Position numbers and translations under genes: made by a program
The notes under the pieces: generated by a model
What the model saw: the letters and a program-made list of their open reading frames with translations, nothing else
Database searches by the model: none
Told to the model about the DNA's origin: nothing
Source: Christensenella sp. UBA3798
GTDB taxonomy: Bacteria > Bacillota > Clostridia > Christensenellales > CAG-1252
Length of the DNA: 45,637 nucleotides
Direction of reading: 5' to 3'
NCBI GenBank assembly: GCA_002368735.1
Contig: DFEQ01000006.1
Coordinates: forward strand, 1 to 45,637
Shown: positions 1,417 to 32,640 of the stretch, one piece after another
Layout of the letters: every line of letters starts with the position of its first letter
Numbering within the stretch: the first letter of the stretch is position 1

Positions 1417-4400
1417 GCGCCGAAGTCGTCCACGATCCTCACCGATCCCGATCCGTCGGGAGGGGGAGGCTCCGGCACGTCGGAGACGCGTATAGACGTT
1501 ACGGGAGGTGAGAAGTCGGATTCTTCGGTATCCGAGTTCTTTACATATCTCAAAAAAGCGCTTGCCGTAGACGACGCGAGCGACGCAGTGGCGTTTAAGT
1601 TCGTGACCGAGGACATGACCGTAGTGAAGAGCGAGAAGTCCGTCGATCAGAACGGCAATGAAGTATCCACCCCCAAGACCTTCGATATGTACGCCGAACT
1701 CGCCTGCAAATATGACCGCAGGGACGACTCCAATACCGAATTGCTCTTTGAGCTGCATTCTTCTCTTACGCGCGAGCTCGTGTTTGGCTTCTATTACTAT
1801 ACGGGCGTATTTTACTTGAATATCCCCAACGATGAGGGCGGTGCCGCTACCATCTATATGGACGAGTTCAGCCTGGACGACGTCGTGACCATCCTCGCTA
1901 GCTCGGGCGCCACGGTGTCGGATATCTATAGCGCCGTGATGACCGCCAACGTGCCGATGATCGACGTGAGCGCTATCATCTCGTCTATGCTCAGCGCCGC
2001 GGTCAAGGAGGTCACCAAGACCGAGAAGGATGGCGCCACGCAAATCGTCTTGAAGACCGATTTCAACGCTTCGATCAATGCCTTGCTTGATAAACTCAAA
2101 AGTTTTGACCGAGCCTTGAAGGAGCTCAATATTCGCAGTGCTCTGGAGACCGTGTTCGGCATGTCCTTCACCTCTCTCGTCAATTACAAGTTTGACCAGT
2201 TCACCTGCGACGTGACTTTGAACATCCTGGACGGCAAACTCCTCAGCGTACAGCCCACCCTCGGCTACGGCGGGAAGTTTGCTATGGACCTCTTGATAGA
2301 CAACGTCTACTACGGCGACGACACCAACGCGGTGGGGACCATCGCCTTCCCCGAATTTAACGATTACAGGAAGTTCGGCGTGACCAACCTCGAATTCACC
2401 ATGCACCTCGACCTGGAGAACGCATCGGAAAAGAGCGTTACGATGGATAGCCTGCTCGGCGGCTTCTTCCGCGAGTACTTCGGGCTGACCTCCATGGGCG
2501 CTTTCGGCGAGAGGGTGCTCACTCTCGGCAAGGGCACCATCGGGCTCAACCTCGACGTCAACGCCGAGATCGATTGGAACAAGAACGAAAGGAATTACAT
2601 AGAGATCGAGGTCTTCGAAAGGCTCACTTCGGGCGACAAGCGCCTCGGCACTATCTACTACGTGGGCTCCAAGAGTGCCTTGTACGTGGACTTCTCCGAG
2701 TGCAAACTGCCTAAGTTCGTCTACGAAGGATTGAACCTCGCATCCGTCATCAAACGTTTCGTCGTGGAGACAGTCTCCTCCATGCTCGGCACCGCGGAGG
2801 AAAGCAGCGCCGCGGGCGAAGAGATGCGCGAGGTCATCATCGAGGCGTTTGCTCCGGGCGGCAGTTACCAAGACGCGCTTTCCGCCATCGTGAGAAACGG
2901 CACCTACGAAACAGTCGCCGAAGCAGGCGACGGCGAATACGTCGATCTCACGCTGGACGTCGTCGCTTTGATAAAAAAGCTCGCCAATGCCGTGGCGAAC
3001 AATCTCGAAATGCGCCCCGAGGGCAAGCGTGCGATCGCGCTCACCGTGGATCGTTCGCTCGTTATGGACGTTGTGGGGCACCTTGCCGCGAAGGCAAAGG
3101 AAGGCTTGGATACGGCTGTCAAGAAGCAAACAGAAGCCGCCTCGAACGACGATGAGCTCAAGGAATACGTGTCTACCATCTCCACGCTCGAAGCGGAGAA
3201 ATCTTCGCAAGAAGAAGCGCTCCGAGCCGCTCGCTTGGAGCTGGAAAACGCGAGCAACATGGCGGCGGAGAGAAGGGCGCAGGCGAAGATCGACAACATC
3301 GAAAACGTCCTGCTTCCCAATATCAACATGCAGCTGGAGTATTATCAAAAGCTTTATGACGAGCGCATACAGGCTTTCTCCTCCGACGTGGACGCCGCAC
3401 GCAATAACTTCTATATCTTCGCCTCTCTCTACGACGGGCTAAAGGATAAGTCTTTGACGAGCGGCGACGTCGCTATCCGGAGTATCCGCGTCGAACTGGG
3501 GCTCCTCTCGGTCGGATACGGCATCTACGCCGACGTGGACGTCAAGCTCGCGGAAGACACCCATCTGAAACTGTCGGTGGACCAAGTCTCCATCGGCTAC
3601 GCGCCCGTATTCAACGTGCCCAAGGAGAATTTCGACCCACAAGGCTATTCCACCTTGGAGGAGTTCTCCTCCGTTTCCCTGTCCGCCACCATCGCCCTCG
3701 CGGGTGACAGCGGCTCGCTGAAGGAGCTGAACCTCGGCGACGCGCTCGGCGGCATGATCGGCGAGCTGACCTGCCTCCTCGGCGTAAAGACGGCGAATGA
3801 CGTCGCGCTGTCGGGCGGGATGGATATCAAGGTGGACGCCAACTTGAACTTTGACCCCATCAGCATCTCCGACTATCTGAACGGCGACAACACCAAGCTC
3901 AAACTGAACTCTATCGATCTGGCCGTCAACGTGTACAAGCGTCCCAACGCCACCACCCCCGCCTTGACCGAAGCCAACCGTATGCTCAGCGTGTGGTATT
4001 CGGGCGAGGAGGGCGCTATCTTTGTGGATGCGACGGGCGTATCCATCAGCGATGACGGTGCGACCATCCCCCGCTTTATGTACCGTATGCGCCTCGAAGA
4101 CCTCTTTGCGGGCTCGATCGCCGCGGAGAGCGATATTCCCGCGACCCTTCCCGCCGCCGCTTCGAGCGATTTGTCTATGGAGCAGATCATGGAAGTGGTG
4201 GGCGGAATGTTCGGCGGACTGTACCTCGGCGACGAGATATCGGTCCTGCTTGCGGATAAGCTCATCGCCACCACCCTTTCCATGGTGATGAACGGCAAGA
4301 ATTCGGACAGCGTCATCGACCTCGACTCCTCCAGCAAGGTGTATATCCGCACCGAAGGCGGGCTGGAGATCGGCGCGCATATCGGCTTTGACACCAAGAC

Positions 4401-7400
4401 GTCTGAGGATACCGTCGGATACGTTGACCCCTATATCGAACTGCACGTCGGCGACATCTCCGCCTCGCTCGTCAGGAGGGATATCATTCCCGAAAACGTC
4501 CTCGTGGGCGCCAAGAAGACCTATCCCGACATCACCGAGTTCGACACCGTCTATACGCAGTTTGAGATAGACCTCGGCTACCGCTTTATCAACAACGATT
4601 ACGACTTTACCGACCTCATGGAGGCTTTGTCCGATATGCTCGGCGAGTCTTCTGTCGGCAACCTTTTGGCAAATACCGCGCTGAGCCTCAGCGTCAAAGA
4701 GGAGTTGTTCGGTCATTTCCGCGCGCGTATCAGCGCCAATATGGACTTCTCGGACGGCTTTGAGTTCACCGCGAGGATAGAGCTTTTGAAGGATAACGAC
4801 GTCCTTGCGACCCTCTACTACGAGGGGCTGTACCTCTACGTGGATGCCAGCGGTCTGACCCGCCTTGCTTCGGACGGCGGTCTGAGCGGTCTCAATATTC
4901 CCAAATTCCGCATCCGCGTGTCTAAGCTCGAGTGCGGCTGTACCTGTCCCGACTGCTTGAACGAAGCGTCCTGCGACCACGGCACGAAATGTCTGCCCGG
5001 TTGCGGCTGTGACTGCCACGAAAGCGTCTCCGCTGCGGAGGAGATCTCGGCGGGTAGCTTTATCGGTCTGTTGGATCGCATCGATTTGACAGAGGAAGGC
5101 ATCGCCGTCAAACTTGCGCGCGATAGCTTGTCGAGGGTCTTGACGATCCTCAGCTTTGACGAACTGGGCGAAGCCTTGCCCCATCTGACGCCCTCTTTGA
5201 AGGTGAAGCTCGCGGGCGGCATCGGCATCGGGGCTACCATCGCCTTCGACGACGCGGGTGACAACTATATCGACATCGACATCGGCAAGTTCGGCGTCAA
5301 GTTCGGCAAGGAGAGCCTCGGACTCGTCAAGAGCGAATATCGCGACCTCGACTTTACCATCCTCGATAACGTCTCGGCGGAAGTGTCGGGTCGTATGACC
5401 CTGAATATCGATGCGGGCGCGGCGAATGAAGACGCCGCCGTTGCCGCCGTCGTCAAAGCCCTCGTCAAAGAGGTGGGCTTCGGCGTGCAGGTGGAAAGCG
5501 CCCTCAAGTGGGACCTCTCCTTTGACCTCAAGGCGAACGTCGACCTTTCGCAAGTGGACTTCAACGACGATTCCACCTTTGCCAATATGATCCCGGGTGC
5601 GGAGATATACTTTGCGCTCTACAACAATAACGGCGCGTCGCGAAAGCTGATGCTCCTCATGTATTTTGACGGCAGGACCAAGGACGTGAGCGGCGCTACG
5701 CAGCCCACCGTCTATTTGACCGCTCCCTGGCTCGGCGTGGGCAAGGTCGCTTATAAAGTGGATATCAACGCCCTATCGCAAGACGACGTCTCCGCGGCGG
5801 AGACGGAGGGTGTGGGCGCAGCCGATATCCTCGGCAAGTTCGCCGACCTCATCTTGGACGAAGGGGGCATCGGCGTGGTCTTTACGGGCGAACTGCTCGG
5901 CGAAGTGCTCAACCTCTTGGTGCTTGATGAAGATATCGACTTTGCTTCGATGATAGAGCAGGTAAAGCTCGGCATCGGACTCAACGACGGACTCAGCATC
6001 AACCTCGACGCCTTCCTGACCGGCGCCAAACTCTCCGCCGGCATCACGGGGCTCGGCTTCAATATCGGCGAGAGTATCGACCTCGAAGACCTCGTCTTTG
6101 ACACCGACGACCGCGAGACCGAATACGCGACCGTCGCGTCGGGTACCGACATCAAATTCAACAGTATTTCGGCGGGTATCACCGCTACCTTTGATATCAA
6201 GAGCGCAAGCTTTGAGAACTACGACGCCTCCGAGACCATGAAGAGCATCGTGGACCTCTTTGAACTGGAGGAGGAGGTCAGTTCGCTCGTAGAACAGCTC
6301 TCTCTGTACCTTTCTGCCGACCTGCCCGCGCGCGCTAACGACGCGGCTATGCTCTCGGCGGGCAAACTCATCGTGCGCTTTGACTTCAACTTCTTCGATA
6401 CTTTGGAGTTCGTTTTGCACATCACGACGGGGGATGGTGACGAAGTCGCCACCGTCATGTATCACGGCATAAACGACCTCATCAACGGCGAGGAAGACGT
6501 TCTCTATCTCGAATTGCCCATCATCGGCATCCCCAAGACCAAGGTGGTGGGAACGAAGATCTCCTCTTACGTGGCGAGCTTGACCGAGACCGCCGTCGCT
6601 TCTCAGGAGGAACTCACGAAACTCCCGTGCGGTTGCAGTTGCGACGCGTGTTTGGCGGCGGGTACTTGCGGCAAGAGCGCCGGCAGCCTGACCTGCGCCA
6701 TCTCCTGCGATTGCACCTGCCATCTGCCCGACCTCGATTGCGGCTGTATGAACCCCGCCTGTAAGATCGCGGGCAGCTGCTATCACACCGACGAGACTCT
6801 CGGGGAAGAGGTGCCCAACGAAGGTTGCACCTGTCCCATACATAACGGTGTCACCATCATCGACCGCTTGAACGAGATCGTCGATCACGTGGTGCTGGAC
6901 GGCTCCACGGGTCTCATCGGCGTGGTGACTAAGGGCAACGCCCTCGCGACCATTGCTTCCATGCTCTCGTTGAAAATAGTCCTGCCCGAGCTGGTGATGA
7001 GCGCCAAAGTCAACGTGCGCGATCTCGGCGCGGTGGTGGGCATCACGGGCTTCGAGGACGAAGAGGTCACCTTTGACCTCGCGGTGGACGTGGGCGACCT
7101 CTTGATAGAATTCAAGAAGCGCGACCTCATCTCGGGGACGGAGGCGTACCAAGATTGGCGCACCTTGCAGTTCGGCTTTATGCTCGACGCGGACGTCGCC
7201 TTCAAGATGGACGGCACCTACGCGGAGTATCTGACCGACTATATCTCGGAGAACGTTGCGGGCGAATCCATGAAGGTCGTCGTGGGCAACAATACCACCG
7301 AGGACAAGGTGGAAGTCGCGCTCGGATTGGAAGTTGCGGCAAACGTCGCTTTGGACTACGACGATACCGTCAAGAACTTTGTGCATCCCGGGGTGGAACT

Positions 7401-10400
7401 GTGGCTCTCCTTCTATGCCAAGACGGGGGAGGACGAGCTGTACGACAGGACGTCCAGCCTGATCTCCATCTACTATAATTCGAGCGAAGTGACCGACGGC
7501 GCCTCTCACGAAGTGCTCTATTTTGCGGGCGCGGCGTACGGCGCGGAAAGTGCGGTCAAGATAACCGATATCGGCGTGTACGACCTCGTGATGGAGCTCT
7601 TGCTCCCGATGATACCGAGGGCGGGCATCGTTTCCGCGGCGGAAGCGGACGACGCGGAGGCGCAAGCGGTCGGCGGATTGCTCTCGGGCATCCTCGGACT
7701 TACCGTCACGCGCGAAGACGGGCTCTTGATCTCGGCGGACGGCGGCGCTTTGAAACTGGCGCTTTCCTTGCTGAATAAGGAGCTTGGGGATATCTTCCCC
7801 GCGACCGAAGGCGTGCGCGTGGCGTTTGGCGAGGAGGGTCTCAGCGCAAAACTCGTATTCAACGAAGCGTCTATGCTCACCGTAGAGGTCGCCGACGCGG
7901 ATATCTTCTTCAACAAGTCCTTTGTCGAGTTTGAGCCGATGAGGGATAAGATAGCGGGAGAAAACGGCATCACCGTGGGCGCTGCTCCGATGTCTGCCGA
8001 TGACGCATTCCACCTCTCCGGCAAGTTCAGCGTGGAGGCGGAAACGGGCGTGACCGTGGATGAGAGCGGCAACCCCATCGACGAATTCTTCGGCTCTACC
8101 GAAGGCGGCTATTTGGGCGCGTTGAAGTTCCTCTTGCGCTCCGACGCCGAGAATAAAGTCAACTATACCGTGGAAGCGGACGTTTCGGTCTACGGACTGA
8201 AACTCGACGAAATGAAGCTGAATGCCTTTGACCTTCCGTCGGTCATGGCGCTCGTGGGCAAGGCGCTCGCCGGCGTAAAGGCGGAGGCGACCGTCGTGGT
8301 CAGGGATAACAACGCGGACGACGAAGTCATCTTCGCCATCTACTACACCTTTGATGAGATCGACAGTATGTACGTCGTCGTGCCCGCCTTCGATCTGCGC
8401 CTCAGGGTGGAGGAGGTTCTCCCGCTGAAGTCTCTGCTTGCAAGCATCGTGAGCGACAGGGTGGATTCGGGCGAGACCGCCGCTTCCGAGGCGGTGGAAA
8501 GCGCCGCTGTCGGCGGCTTCCAAGCCAAAGATATATTTAAGCTGGTGGACAAGATAGCGCTCTCCAACGAGGCGCTCACCATCGACCTCTCCGAGCAGAT
8601 ACTCTCAAGGTTGCTCCTGATGGAAGGCATCGAGATAACCCTTCCCGAAGTGAGGACCACCCTCACCCTCGGTCAACTTGTCGCCGCGACGGGCGGGGTG
8701 GATCAGGGCTTGTCCGTCAAGGTGATATCCTCCTTGATACCGCAGTTCAATGCGGAGATTCGCTTGGGCGACTTTGACATCACGCTTGAGAAGGGCTCTT
8801 TGGACCTCTTGGCGCCGCACGCCGCGGTCTTCGGCAGGATGGATACCTACTCCACCCTCGACTCGTTGCAGGCGAAAGTGGAGTTCGAAGCGGACCTGTA
8901 TTACGGCTTCGGCGAGAACCAGACCAACTCCGACGGCAACGCGTGGGCGTTTGAGAAGCTCCTCGAAGACATCGACCTCAACTTGAATATCGGCATCATC
9001 GACCAGCTGAAAGGACACTACAAACTCACCGTCAGCGCGACCGCGAACGTGGCGGAAGGGGCGGACAGCCTGTACGGCTTGGAGATATATATCGTGCTCT
9101 ACTCCGTCAGCAAGGACGGCGAGGATAACGACGTTTACGCCAAGCAATTCAGCGTCTATTACGGCAAGGGCGTGCTCGGCTTGAACTTCTACGACCTCCT
9201 CGGCGTAGAGCCCTTCGAGCTTGAGCTTGACCTCGGCTCCATGATATCGGGCGCCGGATCTTCGGCGGAGCAAGAGGACGCGGGCGAAGAGGCGCAAAGC
9301 GTCACCAAGAAGCTCGAGGGCTTTATCTCCGAGCTTTCGGGCATCATCAAACTCTACGTTAAAGAGAAGTCCGCCGTCTTGGAGCTCAGCGGCAACGTTT
9401 TGCACACCGCGCTCGTCGCTCTTGGTTACGACAACTATTTCCCCATCACGGCAGAGGGGGTCACGAACCTCAATACCGCCGCGATGAACGGGCTTACGGA
9501 GGGCGACTACACCGTCGTCTTGACCTACGATGGTCTGACGAGCGAGTCCGAGTCCTTTACCTATCATCACGCCTATCGTCGCGACCTTTACGACCTCAGG
9601 GCGCTCAATCTGACGGGCGGTGACGTCTATGCCATCGGCTATCAGGGCGAGGGCGTCAGCGGCGTATTCTACAGCGAGGCGAAGTGGAGCGACCTCTTCG
9701 ACCTCGATCTGAAGGCGCAGACCATCACCTGGGTCTCTGCGGATAAGCACAGCGAGCTCTTTGAGAGCTTGCCGCTCGGCGAATACGAGATAACCATCAT
9801 CAAGACGGGCGGCAGGGCAAGCGCCGGCTTCAAGATGGAGAAGAGGCTCTCTTCCTATACCTCCAAGGACGGCTTGCACCTGACGGGACGCACAGTTTCC
9901 ATGATAGAGATAAAGAGGGACGGCGTCACCCTCCATACCCTTGTCCCCACCGAGGTCGAGCTCACGCCGGGCAAGGAGCTTATCGGCGATTACTTTGCCA
10001 TCAATGCTTACGGCGGTCTCCTTGATCTGGAGCTCGGCACGGAGGGCATCCTTGCCAAGGTACGCCTCAAGGACGACACCTATCTCAACCTTTCCATCAC
10101 CGACCTCGATATCGATATGTCGGGCGGCACCGTGGATAGGATAGATAAGAACGGCGAGGCAGAGCAGTATACCTCCAATATCCGCTCGCTCTACTTCGAC
10201 TTCTCGGTAGACCTCTCGGTGAATACGAGCAAGGGGTATAAGCTGGATGTCGACGAATCCATCGGCAACCTCCTCGACAACGTGCTCGGCGGCATCTTTG
10301 AGGGACGCGATATCAACTTCTATTCCGAAAAAGACTCCGAACTCACCTACACCCTCGACGTGCAGGCAAACGTCAAGCTTGCGGGCAAAGCCATCGACCT

Positions 10401-13400
10401 TGCCCACAGCGAACTTGCCGTCACCGTGAAAGAGGGCACGAGGGAGATATTGACCGTATACTACGTGGGCACGCAGGGCGCTAACGGCGTTTTGTATATC
10501 GCCATCCCCTATTTTGATTTGAGGCTCAAGGTGGACGAAGTGGACTTCGTCTCCAAGATACGCTCCCTCCTCGGCGAGAACAGCGTTTCTGCGGCAGAGG
10601 AGGACGACGCGGAGAGCGGTCCCTCCGTCACCAAGATGATCGCCTCGATGCTGCTTGGCGTCAACGTGTACGACGCCTATCTCGACACAGCGGTCGAGCA
10701 CGGCGAGAGTCGCTTCTACGGCATGCAGGCGCTCTTTGCCAAGAAGGCTTTGAACGTGCTGTTGGAGCTTGCGGGCTTTAGCGGCTTTACCCTTCCCGAG
10801 CTGGAAGAAGGGGACGAAACCTCCTATCTCAAGCTGTATATCGACAAGGCGGAGGATAAGCTCCTCGAGGCGCGCCTTGCCTTTGACATTTCCAAGGCGA
10901 CCTCTATGACCTTGACCGTCTATCAGCCCAAAGTGCAGCTCAACGGCAAGATGCGTTACGACAATAATCTCGGCACCTTTATGAGTATCAGCGAGGCGGG
11001 CTCCTTGACCTTGGGTCTCTCGGCGAGCTTTATCCTCGACAACGACAAGGATAACAATATCGACGTGGCGTCCATCGTCAATATGCTCGTGGAGGACGCG
11101 CACGCGGATAAACTCATCGTCAAGACGGAGGCGTCCACCGCCATCTATACCTTCAAGGTCTCCTTGAACTTCTCTTTGCAGGGCGTGACCGAGAGCCTCC
11201 TCGGGGAAGAGGGCGGTATGAGCGTCAATCAGATGCTCCGCTCCATGCTCAAGAACCTCTACGCCCACATCACTCTCGACCGCACCCTCGAAGGTGTGGA
11301 CGACAGACTTGTGGAGGCGTATTTCTACAACAGCTGTTTGTACCTCGACCTCTCCTCCATCGGTATGCCCAAGGCGGCTATCCCCATGGATATCTCCGCC
11401 CTCATTCCCGCGGACGAAGAGCCCGCCGCGGCGGAGCAAGAGAGCCCCTTGGTGTGCGGTTGTTTGAACCCCGACTGCATAGCGCACGCCGATAGTCATC
11501 CCGACGCCACCCATCCCTGCCGCAACGGCATCGGCGGGATGTACGACGGATGCGAGTGCCGCTACTGCGACCCCGACCCCGATCCCAAGTTTGTGGAAGC
11601 CTTCAACGTCTTCTACACTTCGCGCGGTATCCTCGCAAAGATGGAGACCGAGCTCTTCGCCGCCACCTTACAGGCGCTCGGCATCAAGGCGACCTTGGAC
11701 GTCAGCCTCAACGCGCGCTTGAGCCTGGACGACGGTTTATCCGCTACGGCGGTCTTCTACGGCGTGGATAAGGACGGCGAGAAGGCGCACACCTCCGTCA
11801 CCCTCTCGGTGGCCAAGCCCACCGTGGTCCTCGGCGGCGTCATCGAAGAGATGATAGAGGATACCTCCGACTACGGCTATCTGAACGACCTCAGAAACGT
11901 CAACGTCGATTTCACGATAGAGATCGACACCGCGCTCAACGGTTCTTCCGTTGCGGGGCGTTACTTGATCGACGGCTTTATCGCAGACCTCTTCCGCTAC
12001 GGAGCGGGCGATAAGCAGTCCGAGCTCCCCGTCAACTTGATGCACGATATCAAGGGCAAGATCAGCATCCACGTAGCCGCCAATATCGACTTTGCGGACG
12101 TCAATCGCTCCGAGATACTCCTTCAGGTGTATCATCGTCGCGAGGGCGAGGCTGCGGAAGAATGGATCACCGTCTTCTACGGCGGAGCATACGACCTCAT
12201 CGTATGCCTCCCCATCGTGGACGAAGCATTCAATATGACCTTTAACGTCAATCTCGCCAAGTTCCTCGGGGACGACACCGCAAAGATGATCCGCGATCTG
12301 CCCACCACCTTGTCCGACCTCATCTATGGGGCGCTGGGTTCGGAGGCAGGCGCCGTGGCGGCGGCGGAAGGGAGCACGCCCGATTCGATGCTCGGTTTGG
12401 CATTCTCCGCTATCCAAAACATCGGCTTCCAAGCGGCGGGCAAGATAACGGTGAATGCGGCGCGCACGGTCGTGGAGGACTTCTCCGAGTATATGCTCGG
12501 CAGCATCGTCACCCTTGGCGATATGCAGTACTTCGAGGTGTTCGCCGACCTTCTCAGCCGTGAGATAGGTCTCAAAGCGGGCATCAAGAATAACGCCGAA
12601 GGGCCCACCAATACCTTCGCGCTTACCTTGAAGGACTATTCCTTCTCGCTGGTGAAGAAGGACCTTGAATTCGATAAGACGCAGTATAATACGCTCGAAG
12701 ACTACGAATTCCTTTACGTCAAGGCGTCGGGCAAGATCGATTACGACCTGCCGGACGGCGTCTACGACATCGGCGGACTCATCAGGAGCATCGCCGAAGG
12801 GGTGGAGATCCCCGTCACCTTCGAGGGCCTCACCGGCGAGTTCGAGGTAGTCGTCCAGATGAATATCTGCGTGGAGGAGCTCAAACGCAGCGAGCTGCGC
12901 GTGGACGTTATCTGGAACGATAACTACGTGCTCCAAGCGTATATGGACGTCCTGCGTCAGGAGATATATATCTCGATGCCGTGGTTCGACGTGCAGAAGT
13001 TCCTGATAAAGGGCGTGGATACCTCCTTCCTCTTTGACCTCTTGCCTTCGGCTAAGGGCGACGAGGTGAGCGAGGCGGCAGGCTCCTTGGGCTTTGACCT
13101 TGCTTCTTCCGCCGCGGCGAAGTACGTGACTTTGCTCGGCAAGGTGGTGGACGGCATCTTGATAACCAACGACGAGTCTTCGAGGGGCTTGACGATGACC
13201 ATCAACAGCAACTTCGTCGAGACCTTGCTCTCCGAATTCGCCTCTTCCTTGAAACTCGAATTACCCATCGCTTTCGATACTTCTTTCATCAGTGTGGAGA
13301 GGAACACGCTGGACTTCACCTTTAACCTCAAGAACCCCTATCACGCCGCGTCCGCAAGCGCGCCCGTAGGGTATATCAAGGGAAAGCTCGCCTTGGAGAA

Positions 13401-16400
13401 TTGCGGCTTTACCAACGTCAATATCCGTCCCGATAATACCCAAAACGTGACGGAATTCACCCCCCTCCTCGACTACGAAGAGGACGACCCGCTGATACTT
13501 GAGAATATCAGCGTGAAGACGGAGCTCTTCTTCGACGCGCACCTCCTTGAGCAGCAGCTCAACATGAACGACCTCATGATGTACATCTTCGGCGACGGCT
13601 TTGACCTCAAGACCGAGAAGGTGGACGCCATCTTCCGCTTGGAAGTGCAGGGCACCTTCAACATTCGTCGTATCGCAAGGAGCGAACTCTTGGTCAATCT
13701 GTATATGAATTCGCCCGATCCCGCTCAGCCCGGCAAGTATATCGAAAGGCTCTTTATCCGCGGCTACTACGTGGGTCTTGACCAGGCGGTTTATATCGAC
13801 GCGCCCCTCCTCGGCTTGTACGGTATCAAGGCTACCGGTCTGAACCTCGAGTCCCTGATAGGCGGCGCTTCCTCGGGCGAAGAGTCGGGCGAGAGCCTGA
13901 CCGAGCTCGACTGTGGCTGCAAGTGCGCTTCGTGCTTGGATGGCGGCAAGTGTTACGGGCTGGTGGACGGCGTATTGACACGCCTCTGCGCCTCCGACTG
14001 CACCTGCTCGCATTGCCAAGTGCCGGGATGCACCTGCCGCAACGCGGTGTGCGTGGCTACCGGCAGTTGCTACGACGAAGGCGGCGTCAAGCGTTGCGCT
14101 TCCGAGTGCGGTTGCCACTTGCTTTCTTGCGGATGCGATAACGAGGAATGCTTCTTTAACCGCGGTTGCGTGGGCGCTATCAAGCATTGCGAAGAAGATT
14201 GTCTGTGCTCTTGCTGCACGGTGCCTTCCTGCCACTGCACAAACGTTGAATGTGTGGAAAACGGCAGTTGCTACCGCGCGGACGGCAGTAAAATATGCGC
14301 TCTCGATTGCGCTTGTTCCTGCTCCGTTTTGAAGTGCGGCTGCTCCGACGTCGATTGTCAGGCGAGGGGTACTTGCTACGTTGACGGATCGCGTACCTGC
14401 GACGGCAAGGAATGCTCTTGCGCCTGCACCGCGCTTTCGGACGGCTGTAACTGCAAGACCTGCGCCGATAAGGGCGGATGCGTCGCCCAGGACGGCTCTG
14501 TCCGTTGCGAGAAAGGCTGCACCTGCGAGCATTGCACCTTGCCGTGCGGTTGCACAGACCCCTACTGCGTGGCGGCGGGCGGCTGTGGCTTGAACGGTAT
14601 GTACTGCACGGATAACTGCACTTGCACCTGCCATGGGATAGCGCCTTGCGATTGCAATAATCCCGAGTGCGTGGAGAAGGGTTGTATCGTTTCTTATAGG
14701 AACGCCTATAAGGTACAAGCGAGCGGCGCCAAGGCTTATTACGACATTGCGCGCAAAGTTTATTACCTCGCGGAGAATGCGGACGTGATCGTGGACGAAG
14801 ATGCCCTCGTCATCGAAACGGCAACCTCCCGACCCAAGGTGGTCGCCATCGACGCCATCCACAGAGAGGGCTGCGACCTTGATAAATGCACCTGCTATAC
14901 CGATACCTATCGGTTCAATTGCTTCTGCAAGGACCCCGTGTGTATCAAGAACGGCAAGTGCGTCAAGTGCTATCGCTTGATAAAGGACGAGAAGGGCAAC
15001 GACAAGGTCATATCCATCTGCTATTGCGATAAGAATTTCGTCAAGAAAATCGAAGGTCTCAAAGCCGCGGAGGTCACTTCCGTCGTGTTTAAGAACGGCG
15101 AAACTCCCGTTGCCACTTTGCCGAGCAAGGCGGAGTGGAGCGCTTATATGACCATTGTGGACGGTCTCGTATCTCTGAACGACGCCAATGACAACATCCT
15201 TGCCCTCGAAGGCTACAAGTGGACGGTGTACGTCGAAACGACCTCGGGTACCTATGACTTTGAGTATAAGCTTGGCAGCGGTCCCGTCACGAACGACTCC
15301 TGCAAGTGCCATTACAACGTGCTCGCCTGCTTCTGCACTGATCCGGAGCATATCCGCAGCGGCGTCTGTCCCGGGGACTGCGAATACTGCAACGGCGATT
15401 GCCACAAGTATCGTAGCGACAAGTACGCAGAGGCGTTCGCACAGATGAAGATAACGCCGGCGGGCATCTCTTTCCGCACGACCAACAGCTTCCTCTCCAC
15501 CATCTTCTACGTCTTCTCGGGCAATACCATCAGCAACGTGGACGTGCCGCGCATCAGCGTGGACTTCGCGCTCAACTATATCACGAGGCGCGCCGTGTTT
15601 GACCTTGAAAACGTCAACCAAAGCAGCGTCAAGAAGGTGGTCTTCCAAGGCAAGCACGAGATCGGCGGTCTGTACGAGTCGCTGACCTTGACCACGGCGG
15701 AGGAGATCGCCTCCTATATGGAGATAGGGGAGGGCACCGTCACCTTCTACGATTCCAACGTCAACCTCGGCGAGCTGAAGGACTACGCCTGGTTCGTCAC
15801 CTTCTACGGCGACCTTGACCAAAATCTCGGCACGGTGGATTACGCGATGTACACGGGCGAAACGCAGGGCTTCCTTTCGCATCTCGCCTTGCGCGCGGAC
15901 GTGGTGGTCGAACAATATAAGGACGGCGCGTACACGGGCGAGGAATCCACCTTCGGCGTGTCCTTCGGAGGCATCGAGCTGACGAGCGGCAAGAGCACCT
16001 TTACCATCCTTGACGCGCAGGGAAGGACTGACCCCGTATCGGGCGATCCTCTCCCCGCCGACTTCGCGACCTATCAGACCTTTGAAAAACTGCAAAAGAT
16101 AACGGTGCAGACCGACCTCCACATCGAGATCCATCCCGAGGATACTAACGTTGAGCTCGGGCCCATGCTCAATACCTTGTTCCCCGGTATCGATACCTTG
16201 ATGCAGATCATCGTGGATACTGCAGATTGGACGGAGAATACCGAGATAACCTTTGCGGTGCAAGTCGCCCTCGACCTCAACGACCTTGAGAAGACCCAGC
16301 TCATGCTCACCGTCACCGAGACGAGAGCCATTGGGGATAAACTGCTCGCCTTTATCTACTACGACGGCGAGGCGGCGACCCCCACCTTATATATCAATCT

Positions 16401-19400
16401 GCCCATCCTCGGCGTGCAGGGCACTTACTTTGAGAACGTCACCATCTTTGACTTCTACACCGAGGCGCAGCCCGCTTTGGATTGCGGTTGCGGCGAGGAC
16501 AAGAAGTGCAAGAACGTGCTGTGTATCGATAACGGCTCCTGCTACGACGAATACGGCGTCAGGATATGCGACGGCGAGACCTGCGGCTGTGACTGCGCCT
16601 ACTTCAGTTGCGGCTGCAACTGCGGCGACTGCGTCAAAGCCGACGCTTGCGACGGAACGAAGTGCGGCGCAGGCTGCACCTGCTCGCACCACAGCGTGGC
16701 GGCGGCGGACGATGAGACGGCTCTCGTGTGCGGTTGCACCCGGGCTGACTGCATCGCTTACGGCAGTTGCGGTCCCGATTGCACCTATGACTGCGACGGC
16801 AGTTGCCACTACGTCACCACCAGCGCCACACCGCTTCTCTGCGGTTGTACCGACCCCATCTGCTTGATGCGCGGCAGCTGCTACGAGGCGTGTAAGAACT
16901 GCAAGAACGGCAGATGCCACGACAAGGAGAACGCCGCCCTCTTATTCCACAGCGGGCTCTCGGTCTCCGATCGTATTTACGGCTATCTGTCGCACGTTAT
17001 CAGCCTGACGGTTTCCGACGCGGCGGGCTTCCAGATAGAGGCGGAACCCTCCTTGATCACCACCCTTCTCGTGGCGCTCGGCAGGGACGTGGATATCAGC
17101 GCTCTGGACGGCGTGGGCTCTATCCTCGTGGGCTTCAAGGTGGATGCCAACAGCGATATCGCCATCAACGCGCAGGTGGATCTCGGCGACACAGGCGCGC
17201 ACCTCAGATTGACGGCGGATAACATTAAGATAGACCTCAATAAGAACCTGCTCGAAGTGCCCTCGACGGAGGTCGTTGGCTCCTTGCAGAACTATACGAG
17301 GATGAACCTCAAGAGCTATGTGAATATCTCGCTCTCGGGCGAACTCAACATCACCACCCAACAGGCGGTCCTCGACCTCGGCAGGACGGTATCCGCCGTC
17401 CTCGGCGCGCAGAGCGAGTTTGAGCTCTCCTTCGAGGATGGTCCCGTCAGCCTGGGCTATACCATCGCGGCGAACGTGTCTTTGGAGTCGGTGGATATCA
17501 CGGGACTTATCGCGGGCAAGACCTTTGACGCCAAGAAGGTGCTGGAAACCGGCGAGGCTCTCGTGGAGATCATCGACCTCAAGCACAATAAGACCTTCCT
17601 CTCCATCTATCTGAAAGACGGCGTCGCCTACGTCGACCTCGGCATCTTGGCGAGTGCGCCGCCCATGAAGATAGACCTTGCGAACCTCATCAAGTTCACC
17701 GAAGAGGACTACGTCAGTACGGCGGAAGGGGAGGAAAAGAAGGACAGCGTCTACGACGTATCCTATACCCTCGACCTTCCCGAAGTGGTCACTATCGGCA
17801 AGATGTACCACTACGTGGGCGGCTCTTCGCCCGAATTCCTCGTGGCTTTGAAGGGCTACGAAGTGACGAGCGCCATCATCGTGAACGATGCGACGGGCGT
17901 CAAGACCACCATTGCGGACAAGGATGCTCTCGCCAAATACTTCACCTTTGAATACGCGGCGAATAACGCCAACCACCGCTACGTCAACACCATCCTCTCG
18001 ATGGCGGCGACCAAGGAGGTCAGGGAGCTTGCCAGGGACGGCGAGAACTACTACACCGTCTATCTCATCACCGAGGGCGGCGTGGCTTCCTTCTCGCTCA
18101 AGGTAGCTACGGCAGACGCATACGTCACGGGCGGCGACCGCACCATGGCGCTTGTGGCGGGTATGCTGGGCAACGTCACCTTCAAGTTTGACGAATTCAT
18201 GGTGGGCTTGAATAAGAACCTGATGAAGATATTGGAGGAATACCTCGGCATCAGCCTCAACGCGCCCGCAGTGGACGCGGCGATGTTCTTCGGCAAGAAG
18301 GACGCGGAGACCGTCTATATCGGCGCGACCATCGGACTGAAGAACGGCGAAGGCAAGGGCGTCGACGTCGACTTCCGCCTCGGCAACTTCAAGATCGGCA
18401 TCGGCAAGGCGTACCTCTTGGACGAACTTGACGTCAATAATGATTTGATGCGCACGCACGTGACCCTCGTGGACGGGCATAACGAGATCGTTGAGGGGGC
18501 ATACAGCGATATCGAGAGCATCGATACCGCCTACGCTTCTCTTACGGCGGAAGTGACTTTTGCCGCTTCGGGCGACGCCTCTGTCCCCGCAGACCGTAAC
18601 AGCAAGATATTCGACCCCGACGGCGCGGTCTTCACCTTTGGCGATACCTTCCGCGACGCCATCGGCAACGTGCTTGTCAACCTCGGCATCGACAAGTCGC
18701 TGAACGGCACCTATCGCGTGACCTTGAAGGGCTACTTGAAGACTCTCGACTTTGAGATGCTGGGTCTTTCCGACATCGAGGCATACCTCAAGGTGGAGGA
18801 GAAGACGGGCGAAAGCACCTACGGCGAGATATTCACCATCTATTACGCCGACAACTATATCTATCTGAACTTCAACCCCGAGCGCTTCCCCTACATGACC
18901 CTTCCGGCGACCTGTATCAGGCTGGATTCCGCATTGGATTACTGGACGGGCAAGGATGAGGAAGTCGAGGTATCCGCCGCGGAGAGCGACCTTTCGATCG
19001 CATCCTTCGTCCGCTTGATAGGCGGGGCAACGGTGGGCAACGGCATCATCGCCTTGCACCTCAGCGAAAACTTCGTGGGCGGCATCCTTGAACTCGTCAG
19101 CCCCGAATTCAACAATATCTCTCTCCTCATCGACGAGACCAACGTCGCGTTGGACGTCATGCAGGGCGAGATATCCTTCGACCTCAAGACGAGCGGCGAA
19201 TTTAAGCCCGCGGACTACGTCATCTACGGCAGGGACAGCTATGCCAAGGCGGAGAAGGTTTCGAACGATGAAGCGTATATCGCGGTGTATAACAGCGGCG
19301 CCTTCAAGGGTATGGAGGGCGACTATCTCCTCTGCGCCGGCGTGGGCGGCGGAGAAGTGGAAATACCCTTCAACGTCAGCGACCTCAAGCGCGAATACCT

Positions 19401-22400
19401 CTTTACCGACGAAAACGTCTGGAACGTGATGCTCACGGTGGAGGACGGTAGGTTCGCCATCCCGTCGGGTAAGTTCGAGGCGGGCTCCTATCACGTCGTA
19501 TTCACGATGACGGACGGCACGAATGTCACGACGAAAGCGGGCGACGCCATCGCGGGCGGTGCATACGTGGAGCTTGTGGGGCTCGTCGCGGCAAACGTCA
19601 CGTCGGTCAAGGTCACCATGAACTATCTGCGCCTGCCCATCGACGCATCCGGCCTCTCCGGGGCGAACGGATCCTTCACCACCCTCACTTCTCTCACCTT
19701 TAAACAGGTGGAGGCTTCCAAGGTGTCCGGTGGCTTGGAGCTTGCCGACTTTGCAAAAGCGGGCGGGGCGAATGCCGTCACTATCAAGAAAGCGGCGGTC
19801 GGTGCCCTCGGCGGTGAGCATTACTACGCTTACTTCTTCGCCGACGGTGCTCTCGCCGTGGAGAAGGCGTGGCTCTCGGTGAGCGATGACACCACGATAG
19901 AGCTCTCGCATATCTCGATGGATAACTTGCGCAAGATCGTCTTCGTGCGCGACTATTCGGATGAAACGGAGGCTCCCGAATTCGATTCCTACGCCATCCT
20001 GTCCGCGACAGACGAGGCTATCTTCCTCGACTACAAGGGCAACGTGTATACCAACTACACCGCGCAGCAGAGCTTTGATATGTCCTTCACCGTTAGGGAC
20101 CTGGTCTTCGCCGTCGCGCAGCCCGACGTCGGTCTGTATCAAAAGAATAAGGAAACCACCTATTCCTATAACTATTCGACGGGCGCCGTAACTGCGACCG
20201 CGGGGCTCGACCTGGCGAATTACGCGAATTGGCAGGAGCAGGTCTTCTATCTGGCGACCTCTCTTGAGATCTCCGCCGACTTCGCCACGACCGGCGAGGA
20301 GCTTGCGGGCGGCTATGAACTCTTCGGCAACGACAGCGTGGGTCTCGGCTCGGTCATCGACCAGGTCATCGGCATCCTCAGAATGCAGGAAGGACTGAAC
20401 GAAGTCATCACCTTGAAGGTGGAGATTAAGATATTCGCGGAGGACCCCTACCTGTCCGAGGCGCTCTTTACCTTCTCCGTCAAGACGACCGATAAGTACG
20501 GCGCTGACCCGCAGACGGTCAATAAGCCCTCCATCACCGTTTACTATAAGGGTATGGGCGAGGGCAATAAGAGCTATCTGTATATCGACGCCTCGCGCTA
20601 CTTCCTCGGCAACTTTAAGGTAGAGGCAGATATCGTCACACCCATCCTCGACCTGTTTGACATCGGCTCGAAAAACGACAACTACTCCTCCCTCGACCAA
20701 GAGGTATTGCTGTGCGGTTGTACAAACCCCGAGTGCGTCCTCTACGGTTGCATCAAGGCGGAGAACGGCAGATACGTCGTGCGTTGTAAGGGTACGGGCT
20801 GCACCTGTAAGCATTGCGTGCTCTCCTGCGGTTGCGTGGATGAAAAGTGCCTTTTGAACGGCGGCTGCTACGACGCGGACGGCGTAAGAATATGCGACGG
20901 CGAGACCTGCTCGTGTGATTGCAGCCTCTTGGAATGCGGCTGTACCAACCCCGGCTGTATCGAGCATAAGAGCTGCTACGATGAGGAAGGCAACTTGATG
21001 TGTTTGGTGTGTAACAGCGTCTATTGCCAGCTTGCGGGTCGCTGCTTGTTCGACGACGATTGCGAATTCAGAGAGCAAGGTTACCGCGACCCCTGTACCT
21101 GCTCGCACTGCCGTTTGAAGTGCGGCTGTACCGACAAAGCCTGTTTGGATAACCACAGCTGTTATCGTGACGGCGTACTCCTTTGCGACGCGAATTGCGA
21201 TTGCGACTGCTCCGATAACGCCGTTATCGTCGAGCCCGAGAAGGAGTCGGTTCCTTTCTCCAAGTATCTGCCCTATATGGACAATATCCTCTCCGCGGTG
21301 CAGATAGGCAATAAGATGAGCACCATCGTCTTGAACCCCAACGTCTTCAATAACATATTGCTGATGCTTGGCTATAAGACCTACCTCTGCGATGAGAACC
21401 TCGCCTATATCCGCGCCGAAGTGCACGCCACGACGGCGGAGGGTATGAAGGATACCTTCATCAAGATAGCCGCTAAGAAGGACGACGTATACGACGTCTC
21501 TGTAAAGCTCACGGGCTTCAAGGCGCAGGCGGTGGTCAAGAAGGACGCTACGCAGTTTGCGAGCTTTACCTCTGCATATAACTTTGCTTCGAGCGTGCCG
21601 AACTATGAAAGCTACCCGCTCGTTGAGGAGATGGAGCTGCACTTCGCCACCACCGTCGATATTTCGCTTTCGGGCGGCACCGAAACTCTGCCCATCGGGC
21701 TCAACGACCTCTTGGGTTCCATGCTCGGCTTGGAGGCGGAAGACGTCGCCACCCTCACGGTGGATAACGGCACGGTGCAGACGGGGCTTGACCTCCGCAT
21801 CCATATGGAGATGTTCCTCAACCTGCAGCACAGCAGGCAGACCGAGCTCCTCCTCGAGATATCGCAGGTCAATAAGGCTACGGGTGCGACCACCTTGTCC
21901 CTCGGCGTATACTATCTCAACGCGGAGGAAACCGCATACGTAACCTTGCCTGTCTTCGGACTGTCGGGTCTAAAGATAACGGGGCTCGACCTCTCCGACA
22001 TCCTTGCCAACGTCTTTGAGATAAGGTTGTGGAGCGATATCCGCAACGGCACGAGAGAGAGTGCTTCGGCGGCGGAAGAGGAGACCTCCATCAAGAACGC
22101 CCTGTGGCAACTCATGGGTATGGACCTCGGCGACGACGAGTCCCTCCCCAACGTGATACTCGACTATATCCGCGCTATCAACGAGAGCGGCGAAGAGTAT
22201 GAAGAAAAGTACGACCATAAAGCCAAGTTCGTGCTCTCTATGGGGAATTCCAAGGCGGGCGTCGGCTTGAACCTCTCCTTCATCATGCTCCTGATGGATA
22301 TGCTCAAGGTGGACCTCCCCTCGCAGCTCGTATCCATCTTTGAGACCTATCCGGGCGGCTTCACCGCCGAGGCGTATTACGACGGTGCAGACAACGCCTC

Positions 22401-25400
22401 CTTGACGGGCTGGTCTATCGGCGCCAATATCTACTTCAAGAAGAACGAGGCATCCGAGCGCGACGAGATCGGCACGAGCGCGGACAATAAAGAGTGGATG
22501 GGCTTGACCCTCAAGATACACGACCTCGAAGCCTTCGTGGGTGAAAATGAGAGTTTGACCCGTTATGCGCGCACCGACGCCGAAAAGAGCGCCGTCATCG
22601 TGATGCCCGACGCCGTGAAAGCGTCGGAAAACGACGCCAAGGCGAACTATAAGTTCACGCCCAAGCGTTACAGAGGCTACGCCAACACTAATTACGATAC
22701 CTATAAGTCTCTCACGCGTTACAGCAATATCATGGAGATAGACGTCCTGAACGTCAACCTCGTGGGCGAGATGGTCTTTGACCTCAAGAATCAGACGGAT
22801 TCCGAGTACAAGTCCAATCAGACCTTGAAGTTCTTCAACGCCTTGATAGAGGAGATGCTCGGCTTGGAAGCGGGCTCCTTCAACGTGGTGCGTCACGTGG
22901 AGAATACCTGGACCTTCACCGTCAACTTGGATCTCAACTTGAACTTTGAGGACTTCTCCAAGACCCAGCTGAAATTCCAGCTCATCATGAACGACGGCAT
23001 CAGTAGCGACCTCACGCTGGCGGCGATCTATTACGACGGCGCCTCCCTTAGCGAGGACGGCGGTAAGCTGTATCTCGACGTGGCGGACCTCGGCCTCATC
23101 AAGGTGCGCGCCACCGGCGTAAACCTCGAGCAGGCGCTCTCGCAGGTCCTCGACGTGGACCTCTCGAGCGGCAACCTCTCTATCTTGAAGGACGCCTTTG
23201 GCGTGCAGTCTCTCGGCGAACTTATCACCAATAAAATAAAGGAGAGCAAGAACGTCACCGCGCAGGAAGAAAACGAGCAAGAAGAGGAGGAAACCGCGGG
23301 CGCGGCGTCCATCGATTACGCCGCCGACCTCAAGATCGTCCTCGAAGCGCTCGCCTTGCAGGGTAGGACGCAGACCCCCTACAAGCTCAGCATGAAGGTC
23401 AACGGCGCCCTCATCGAGCGCTTGGTCGGTGCCTTCGGCTGGGATGAGAACATCGTGGGCAAGGCGATGGAGCGCGTGGGACTCCCTGAGGACTTCTCGG
23501 CGACTATCGGCTTTACGCTTGACGAAGGACTGAAGGATATCGGCGTCGATATCGTCGCCCCCGACACCTTGTCCGGCGGCGGCTCGAGGAGTAACGACAT
23601 CTCGGTCAAGCTGACCACGTTCAAGTACGACTATACCTCTTCGGCGGAGTCGATGTTTGCGGCAAATCAGTTCGACGATTACAGCGCCCTCCCGATGGGC
23701 GGCTCTATCGGACTCGCCAACCACAACGGCGAGAGCTGGGTCGGCATGCTCGTGGAGAGCGTATTGAACGGCTTGTATCCGCCCGCTGCGTCAGTCGATT
23801 CGGGCGGCAATGAGACTTTGACGGCGGACGCCTTACGCGTAAAGCTCACCCATAATACCCACTATACCGACAAGAACGCCGTCCTCGTCACCGATCAAAA
23901 GAGGAATATCGTCATTCAACTCTCGCGTGACGACTCCGAGGGCAAGTTCCCGCACTCTTTGAGGGGCACGGTATTCGACGTTATGACCGACTTTACCGAA
24001 ACCCCCGGTCTTACCGACATCGCTCAGAACGCCGTGGAGATCTACAGCGAAAACTACTTAGCCATCGCCGACCTTTTGAAGAACATCGCACAAATGTTTG
24101 TCGGACACATCGACAGGATATCGGTCTACTACGTGGACGGCAATCTCAAGTTGCGCGTCGGCTTTAAGATCTCCATCTTCGGCTTGTCGTTATTGACTTG
24201 GGACGAGAATGACGGACTGGACTTCACCTTTAACGTCTATCACATGGATATCTCCGATATGATGTCGGGCAAGGCGAAGAAGAGCAAATACGACGAACCC
24301 GATGAGATCAAGAGCGATGGTGACGACGACGAGACCATTACCCTCGAAGATATCGAAGCAGCCAAGGAGCATCCCGTCACCAAGGTGACGCTTAACCTCG
24401 GCTACGGGCACATAGACGATACGACGGGCACGACGATGGAGAAGTCCAAGCAGGACACCGCGGAAGGACTCGCAGGTGAAAATCCCGCGACTGTCAGCAA
24501 CCTGCGCATTGACTTTGACGCGCTCGTGATCAGAGAGCTCACGCAGATGCTCAACTCCGCGGCGCTCAGCCTCGGCAAATCGCATAGTACCGTCGCGTCG
24601 CGCGCAACCTACGGCACCTATCAGATGATGCTCGGCATGATAAAAGACGCCATCAAAGGACTCATCAAAAAGCTCGGCGATAACACCGTGGTCAATGCGC
24701 TCGCCAGCGTAGCGGGTTCGGCTGCGGCGGCGCTTGCCGATAATGTTCTCGGCGACCAGGTCATCCACTTGCTGGCAAAACTCCTCCCCTTCGTGGAACC
24801 CGCCAAGGGCGACAGCTGCTACTTGATGGTGGAATTCGATACCAACAATAAGGGAAGCGGCAAAGTGCTTATCCGTAAAGCCCTCTTCCGCGCCTGCAAC
24901 GCCAAGACGGGCGAGTATTCGCAGATCGTGCTCACCAACGCGGGCATCCGCCTCGGCGTGGTGGACGAAACGCGCGTGACGATAGAGTTCAACGGCAAGA
25001 CCGAGCGCACCTTGACCGACGTCTTCAATGTCGACCTCGACGGCAACGGCGTGGCGGATTATCTGCAAGACCTGCCCAAGGAGGCGTCCGTCTACTATAA
25101 GCCCGGCACCACCAATGCGGACGACAAGCCCGACGACGTCAACATCGTCTGGACGGACAGCACCTTCGTCATCGACCCGACGGGCGGCGTCACCACCCCC
25201 ATCGCGAGACCCAAGGACGGCAGTGATAAGATAGCCACCAGCTACAATATCATCGGCACTATCCTCAATTACAATAAGTACGTGCCGCTCAACGTGCCGT
25301 ACAGCGCAGTGCGCCTTGTCAAATACGCCACGGTCGCGGGCGAGACCACGCCGCTTATCAAGGGCGAGCATATCGAACTGCCCATGCGCATCACCCCCGA

Positions 25401-32532: not shown

Positions 32533-32640
32533 ATGACTGTAACACAAAGACGGACAAAATGGAAGGCAGGACTCATCATCGCACTGGCGGCGATAATCTT
32601 GTTGACGCTGCTTGCGGTGTCGCTTTCGATAGCGACCGAC
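32533..32640 (+). other. N-terminal signal anchor or uncleaved signal peptide
   Basis: A basic n-region (RRTKWK) is followed by a ~23-residue hydrophobic stretch, AGLIIALAAIILLTLLAVSLSIA. There is no lipobox Cys. Confidence 0.6.

Follow-up and report, generated by a model that had tools for sequence, protein, structure and literature searches.

One junction linker, with or without Cys/His-rich inserts, between the modules of a predicted giant surface protein from Christensenella sp. UBA3798

The window analysed here, the whole 45,637-nucleotide (nt) stretch of contig DFEQ01000006.1 from Christensenella sp. UBA3798, encodes a giant protein of 10,372 amino acids (aa) in a single open reading frame (ORF) on the forward strand (nt 1339–32457). 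The protein consists of 21 modules of ~270 aa (aa 1 to ~7660), followed by ~2,700 aa of immunoglobulin (Ig)-like repeats; the long minus-strand ORFs lying within the giant ORF are shadow ORFs. A first-pass annotation had proposed that the modules are joined by two structurally interchangeable elements, acidic linkers carrying the tetrapeptide SAAE and cysteine knots. The analysis of the junctions showed one type of linker at a fixed place, with a motif that is non-random, family-wide and loosely conserved, and the two apparent junction forms are this same linker without or with an insert. The inserts, which are Cys/His units, are optional, clade-specific and position-stable.

The giant reading frame and its modules

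The N-terminus of the 10,372-aa protein is a signal-like sequence with a cysteine, LVAFAC↓AP. Set against the lipobox pattern ([LVI][ASTVI][GAS]C), it is atypical, with Phe at position −2, whereas the relatives carry the canonical LVAC, IAAC, LLSC or LVGC. The protein is probably lipid-anchored at the cell surface. The C-terminal ~2,700 aa (from ~aa 7700) are built of ~100-aa repeats, two of which reach the threshold of Pfam Big_4 (PF07532), with a score of 82.7 bits against a cut-off of 22.1. The likeness to Big_4 Ig-like arrays is confined to this C-terminal region and does not include the junction region, and it supports a cell-surface, adhesin-like protein. As only two repeats reach the threshold, the others may belong to a diverged or undescribed Ig-like subfamily. 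By eye, and as an uncounted estimate, ~25 repeats of ~100 aa with the pattern FDPY...W...GG...G..GYQ...V.V are seen in nt 24300–32457 (aa ~7700–10372). At the other end of the protein, the first eight residues, MTKNLHTK (nt 1339–1362), are nearly invariant in all of the orthologous loci described below (L001–L010), down to 41% identity, which is unusual for the start of a signal peptide.

Each module is beta-rich and closes with a conserved beta-hairpin bearing YY, after which comes a short LxxLLGG-type helix. The hairpins provide 21 YY anchors (nt 1795–24132, forward strand), which lie at aa 153, 440, 886, 1160, 1442, 1708, 2045, 2335, 2607, 3041 and 3329 (anchors 1–11) and at aa 3613, 3868, 4143, 5007, 5424, 5835, 6402, 6858, 7231 and 7597 (anchors 12–21). 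The count of 21 modules agrees with the first-pass annotation: a module hidden Markov model (HMM), seeded with 10 regular modules, found 20 of the 21 anchored modules at E < 1e-3 and the 21st weakly. The modules outside the seed were scored at E values of 1e-5 to 1e-13 and, after two iterations, 20 modules were recovered at 1e-25 to 1e-69, with those outside the seed reaching 1e-25 to 1e-41. The modules are true repeats. No match to the module region (aa 1–7700) was found in Pfam or NCBIfam, and the modules, as judged by these searches, define a family that is absent from both libraries.

Several modules are interrupted or separated by additional sequence. Module 3 contains an E-, K-, A- and L-rich, coiled-coil-like insert of ~110 aa (nt ~3100–3440; aa ~590–700), which is also present in the orthologues. 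Additional stretches of ~100–450 aa lie inside or between modules 10, 15, 17, 18 and 20, at nt ~9300–10000, 14690–16040, 17760–18100, 19120–20060 and 22120–22700 (aa ~2660–2890, 4450–4900, 5475–5590, 5930–6240 and 6930–7120). Three of these extra inserts were scanned against Pfam and gave weak hints only (Big_3, E = 0.14).

One linker type, without or with an insert

Six exact copies of SAAE are present in the protein, all at the positions given by the first-pass annotation: nt 5029–5040 (aa 1231, junction 4, directly behind a Cys unit), 5791–5802 (aa 1485, junction 5), 7633–7644 (aa 2099, junction 7), 10588–10599 (aa 3084, junction 10), 18973–18984 (aa 5879, junction 17) and 22066–22077 (aa 6910, junction 19), on the forward strand. 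The last five of these begin +43, +54, +43, +44 and +52 residues from the YY anchor, again as first noted. Two copies of AAAE lie at nt 11425–11436 (aa 3363, junction 11, 10 aa upstream of a Cys unit) and nt 12358–12369 (aa 3674, junction 12). The relaxed versions are likewise real, and comprise, besides AAAE, SAAG (aa 489; from nt 2803), IAAE (aa 926; nt 4114), AASE (aa 2381; nt 8479), SSAE (aa 2641; nt 9259), SEAA (aa 3911; nt 13069), AAAD (aa 5121) and STAE (aa 5461; nt 17719), all on the forward strand. Five of the six exact sites read VSAAE, and in this lineage the motif takes the form [V]-[SA]-A-[AS]-E and leads into acidic residues. Across all 21 junctions the linker motif starts at +34 to ~+74 from YY, with no recognisable element at junction 1, and the next module begins 5–15 residues after the motif.

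SAAE is enriched relative to shuffled sequence, with six copies against 0.28 expected from the composition of aa 1–7700 and none of 20,000 shuffles reaching six, and it is the most over-represented tetrapeptide without Cys. All six SAAE and all eight [SA]AAE sites fall within windows 30–75 aa past a YY anchor, which together make up 12.5% of the sequence (binomial P of 4e-6 and 6e-8, respectively). The linkers, both here and in the wider family, are enriched in A, S, G and E; from their own composition only 0.10 copies of SAAE would be expected, and 0.007 of VSAAE compared to the five seen. The codons used for SAAE vary synonymously from site to site, which rules out a recent DNA duplication as the origin of the copies and argues for selection on the peptide. 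The A and E of SAAE are among only four invariant columns of a 13-row alignment (A1), although the target's own junction makes up 4–5 of its rows. A helix 'capping box' (S-x-x-E) was considered as a full explanation of the motif and was rejected, as the S is replaced by A, I or L at many sites.

The Cys clusters reported by the first-pass annotation were found at the starts it had given (nt 4933, 6628, 11455, 13912, 16483 and 20713, forward strand), at +39, +56, +44, +49, +42 and +57 from YY; only the third offset differs, having been stated as +45. They correspond to one Cys/His unit at junction 4 (nt 4933–5016; aa 1199–1226), two units at junction 6 (nt 6628–6834; aa 1764–1832), a Cys cluster at junction 11 (nt 11455–11568; aa 3373–3410), an array of ~8 units with 61 Cys at junction 14 (nt 13912–14685; aa 4192–4449), an array at junction 15 (nt 16483–16917; aa 5049–5193) and an array of ~5 units at junction 18 (nt 20713–21210; aa 6459–6624). 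Three further clusters were identified beyond that list. Two smaller ones lie past the junction 14 array (nt 14872–15027 and 15301–15402, forward strand; aa 4512 and 4655), interleaved with small beta domains, and the third is inserted in the C-terminal Ig-like array, outside the modules (nt 28555–28650, forward strand; aa 9073–9104). The latter cluster (CGCESCVGYC...CTCAKC) has a similar counterpart in the relative P0044 (aa 2725), where it is also followed by a 'DWSKT.IDY.Y' stretch.

The Cys unit measures 30–36 aa and contains eight ligands in the pattern C-x-C-x(2-5)-C-x(3-7)-C-x(3-12)-C-x(2-6)-C-x-C-x(1-2)-[C/H], of which this protein has 12 copies, compared to 0.9 on average and at most 4 in shuffled sequence. 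The core consensus is CGC[T][ND]PxC[IV]xxGSCY. The eighth ligand is either Cys or His, several clusters have odd numbers of Cys (9, 15, 7, 61 and 31), and His makes up 3.1% of the Cys segments compared to 1.0% overall, a threefold difference. The alternation of Cys and His at the last ligand and the odd Cys counts argue against an all-disulfide knot, and the pattern of the unit favours metal binding over a cystine knot. The C-x-C and C-x(n)-C spacings and the Cys–His exchange are those of zinc or other metal-binding mini-domains, as a pattern match only. By its sequence the unit does not resemble a knottin: it has eight ligand positions rather than six Cys, no Pfam match, and a PDB match at only E = 0.05. 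The latter, to a 29-aa peptide, was the best PDB sequence match to the Cys array and was taken as chance. No relative of the Cys array was found in Pfam, NCBIfam, the PDB or, by word-indexed search, a set of 5.8 billion proteins, and the Pfam, NCBIfam and PDB searches linked the Cys unit to no established metal-binding family. The unit shares its length of 30–36 aa, its 7–8 Cys, its C-x-C and C-x(n)-C spacings and its tandem arrangement with metallothionein-like and zinc-binding mini-domains and with cystine-knot peptides, from which it differs in being extracellular, embedded in the linkers of a giant protein and without a Pfam or PDB relative.

The motif and the Cys units share one site, the linker downstream of the YY hairpin and the short LxxLLGG-type helix, and in junctions 4, 6, 11 and 15 both are present together. 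At junction 4 the knot (aa 1199–1226) is followed immediately by SVSAAEE; at junction 11, PAAAEQES lies upstream of the knot (AAAE at aa 3363, knot at aa 3373); at junction 6, AVASQEE lies upstream of the knots; and at junction 15, SVAAADDE is found at aa 5119 between Cys units, its AAAD starting at nt 16699. At junction 14, SSGEESGES lies upstream of the Cys array. When the modules were aligned in 35 rows (A2), the motif fell into a single block of columns, with the Cys units as insertions N-terminal of it. The co-occurrence in single junctions, the stable type of each junction in the orthologues and the lack of Cys units in most of the family, the latter two described below, identify the Cys units as optional inserts. 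The proposal that the two junction types are interchangeable therefore stands as to place, which they share, but not as to exchange, as the two co-occur in single junctions and the type is fixed in orthologues.

An AlphaFold model of aa 1190–1483, covering the knot, SAAE and module 5 and built on the 35-row alignment, had a mean predicted local distance difference test (pLDDT) score of 69.5. The half of the module with the YY hairpin was modelled at pLDDT >90 and the Cys unit at 54–74; HESVSAAEEIS was modelled as coil at pLDDT <50, immediately upstream of the module's first helix. A Foldseek search of the PDB with a single-module model gave a best match at E = 0.24 and none below 0.2. The strand pattern had raised the idea of an AsmA/TamB-like, beta-taco or lipid-transfer fold; this is unsupported, with TamAB at only E = 1.9 in Foldseek and no Pfam or NCBIfam match.

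Orthologues and the wider family

Word-indexed homology searches returned close orthologue fragments only. The orthologue set comprised four N-terminal protein fragments (35–66% identity) and ten loci from GTDB genomes (L001–L010), which were retrieved with the orthologue alignment as query; a single-protein query gave none. All ten loci are from metagenome-assembled genomes of uncultured Clostridia, four of them from goat, yak or water-buffalo rumen and three labelled Christensenella sp. UBA. The type of each junction was kept in the ten loci and the four fragments, over a range of 41–63% identity, with no switches. Cys units were present at junctions 4 and 6 in all of the orthologues and at junction 11 wherever it was covered, with motif-only linkers elsewhere, and the sole change was in the number of units at junction 6 (two in this protein, L001, L004 and L010; one in L005 and L006). 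The absence of any switch argues against interchangeability and for stable, position-specific inserts. The motif itself is loosely conserved: the identity of its columns among orthologues was 0.51, compared to 0.41 in the flanks and 0.53 over the whole protein, and at some orthologous junctions the motif is shifted in register or missing (e.g., junction 8 in L004 and L010).

An exhaustive profile search of 1.84 billion representatives with A2 identified 139 proteins at E ≤ 1e-3, 46 of them at E ≤ 1e-30. The family members are mostly of 5–8 thousand residues (many 5,000–7,900 aa) and have 12–17 modules each. Their N-terminal signals end in ..AC or ..GC (LVAC, IAAC, LVGC) and are lipobox-like, and most of the representatives are putative lipoproteins. 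The pattern CxCx(2-5)C is absent from 118 of 136 new sequences, and most have 0.1–0.2% Cys. The Cys units are limited to the clade around the Christensenella protein, in which they always start 38–65 aa past a YY. Another small Cys insert, C..H.D.DGDG.CD.CG, was noted in the relatives P0024 (aa 1413), P0029 (aa 2505) and P0051 (aa 1212 and 1239), in the same linker, 47–94 aa past the YY anchor; in P0024 and P0051 it stands directly behind the motif, its first Cys following AVTAAE and SEAVTAAGGQ, respectively. The presence of a different Cys insert at the same site in a few members from other clades points to the linker as an insertion hot spot.

The motif was also sought by expectation-maximisation (EM), under a model of zero or one occurrence per sequence, in 458 family linkers from which this protein and its close orthologues were left out. 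The first motif returned was the LxxLLGG helix, and the linker motif emerged once the linkers were anchored on that helix. The family consensus was E-A-[LV]-[ATS]-[ATS]-A-[DE], with an estimated occupancy of 0.5–0.8 and a log-likelihood of 371 on a background of the linkers' own composition, compared to 109–115 in three within-window shuffles. Ala is the commonest residue at the two Ser/Thr positions (0.32 and 0.38). In the far family, 58 of 151 occurrences of [SA][TA]A[ED] fall in the junction windows, which cover 9% of the sequence (P = 3e-22), and their median offset of +50 equals that in this protein. Strict or relaxed patterns of the motif match only ~10–25% of far-family junctions. VSAAE matches positions 3–7 of the consensus, and by this correspondence SAAE is the local dialect of an old family-wide junction motif.

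Possible roles of the linker, and the neighbouring sequence

The reading that we favour, and consider fairly probable, is that the linker is an inter-module spacer with a weakly constrained motif, which is also a hot spot of insertion. The linker would act as a charged spacer or hinge that keeps adjacent beta-rich modules apart, and the motif, as a short capping or docking segment, would mark where the next module begins. In the clade of this protein the linker has accepted from one to ~8 tandem Cys/His copies, before or after the motif, and these would serve as small rigid spacers, probably metal-stabilised, that lengthen particular junctions. Comparable linkers occur in clostridial cellulosomal scaffoldins, where they are rich in Pro and Thr, and in Ebh- and SasG-type adhesins; these too are short low-complexity segments at a fixed place between the tandem domains of a very large, exported and cell-anchored protein, and they too tolerate length variation and insertions. 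The linkers described here differ in being composed of Ala, Ser, Gly and acidic residues rather than Pro and Thr, and in having a seven-residue motif that is conserved across a family with below 20% identity; the ~270-aa module, unlike the domains of those proteins, has no Pfam, NCBIfam or PDB-fold match.

A number of points weigh against the spacer reading. A two-module AlphaFold model built on the 13-row alignment was unusable (mean pLDDT of 35). The Pfam, NCBIfam and PDB searches yielded no functionally characterised homologue of either the module or the Cys unit, and metal binding by the Cys units is suggested by their ligand pattern only. Finally, a pure spacer would not be expected to retain a recognisable seven-residue motif at below 20% module identity, and a more specific agent may be at work.

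It could instead be that the motif has no function, being an Ala/Glu-rich compositional habit inherited from the ancestral module, such that any small or acidic sequence would suffice. The A, S, G and E enrichment of the linkers, the fuzzy conservation among orthologues and the many far-family junctions with no clear match are all consistent with this. However, the log-likelihood of 371 on the linker background, compared to ~112 for the within-window shuffles, the five copies of VSAAE where linker composition predicts 0.007, and the hydrophobic [LV] within a small and acidic stretch, which composition alone does not give, make this explanation unlikely. The first-pass annotation had offered a hinge, a glycosylation site or a processing site as functions of SAAE, of which the hinge or spacer is the best fit. 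O-glycosylation is common among Firmicutes surface proteins, and Ser or Thr is frequent at positions 3–4 of the motif, which speaks for a site of post-translational modification such as O-glycosylation. Such a site is nonetheless very improbable: Ala dominates both positions, so that obligatory glycosylation in particular is unlikely; the AAAE and IAAE sites here and ALAE in orthologues have no hydroxyl residue at all; and there is no glycosyltransferase gene in the window.

A third possibility is that the [SA]-x-A/acidic motif is an endoproteolytic processing site, at which the giant would be cut after export, at most junctions, into module-sized pieces as a polyprotein, the Cys units marking junctions with a different cleavage. 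Nearly every junction has a short motif at a corresponding place, the motif has been kept throughout a very diverged family, and it lies in a predicted low-confidence coil that is likely to be accessible. Type I signal peptidases follow an A-X-A rule, and the motif, with a small, uncharged residue at each of −3 and −1 and an acidic one next (S-A-A↓E, A-A-A↓E, the A-T-A↓D form, orthologue A-L-A↓E and the family [ATS]-[ATS]-A↓[DE]), resembles it, which as a pattern match is a lead only. The surface adhesins of Mycoplasma hyopneumoniae are reportedly cleaved at a short motif in which an acidic residue follows the scissile bond, and a further likeness to signal peptidase sites and to its P97/P102 adhesins is the location in a large surface (lipo)protein, within a stretch that is exposed and probably disordered. 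The motif described here is, by contrast, internal and present in ~20 repeats, with loose conservation and no preceding hydrophobic core, and its cleavage is only hypothetical. The ~7–15 hydrophobic residues (h-region) that signal peptidase needs immediately upstream, at the membrane, are lacking at most sites, where the upstream sequence is mostly polar (e.g., INALSQDDVSAAE and RNGTRESASAAE); a hydrophobic segment, LVMELLLPMIPRAGIVSAAE, is found at junction 7 only. Furthermore, the motif columns are not better conserved among orthologues than their surroundings, the motif is shifted or missing at junctions such as junction 8 in L004 and L010, and only ~10–25% of far-family junctions match. 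A cut would also release everything beyond module 1, including the Ig-like array, from the N-terminal lipid anchor, and no protease gene is present in the window. Processing at the motif is thus improbable. The broader form of the idea, in which the whole family would be extracellular bacterial polyproteins of 5,000–10,000 residues, cut after export into ~20 module-sized surface proteins of a fold with no described relative, with Cys/His inserts modulating which junctions are cut, is likewise improbable.

The inter-module spacer remains our preferred reading. Linkers that are conserved and take optional inserts are in themselves ordinary in proteins, and this one would be notable only if its motif proved to signal cleavage or modification. 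Giant repetitive surface proteins with linkers are likewise of a known architecture. In the libraries searched there is no description of the module family, of the junction motif or of the Cys/His unit, and a literature search found nothing relevant. For this undescribed family of giant surface (lipo)proteins in rumen and gut Clostridia, with 139 representatives and no Pfam or NCBIfam model, the results provide a first anatomy, which defines the limits of the repeat unit, a junction motif common to the family and a new eight-ligand Cys/His mini-domain. The module boundaries are needed for the expression of single modules, for family models and for metaproteome searches for processing.

In the neighbouring sequence, G+C content is 0.51 in the first 2 kb of the window, compared to ~0.57 beyond, and a 331-aa ORF upstream of the giant ORF (nt 146–1141, within the region 1–1338) has no Pfam match and reads like non-coding sequence. 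Downstream, a second giant ORF on the forward strand (nt 32533–45637, >4,368 aa) continues past the end of the window. A Pfam scan of this ORF gave no match at E < 0.01. Its N-terminus has a membrane or signal segment, and its repeats, of the GG[LIV]VG.N.G type, are of another kind and unrelated to the modules.

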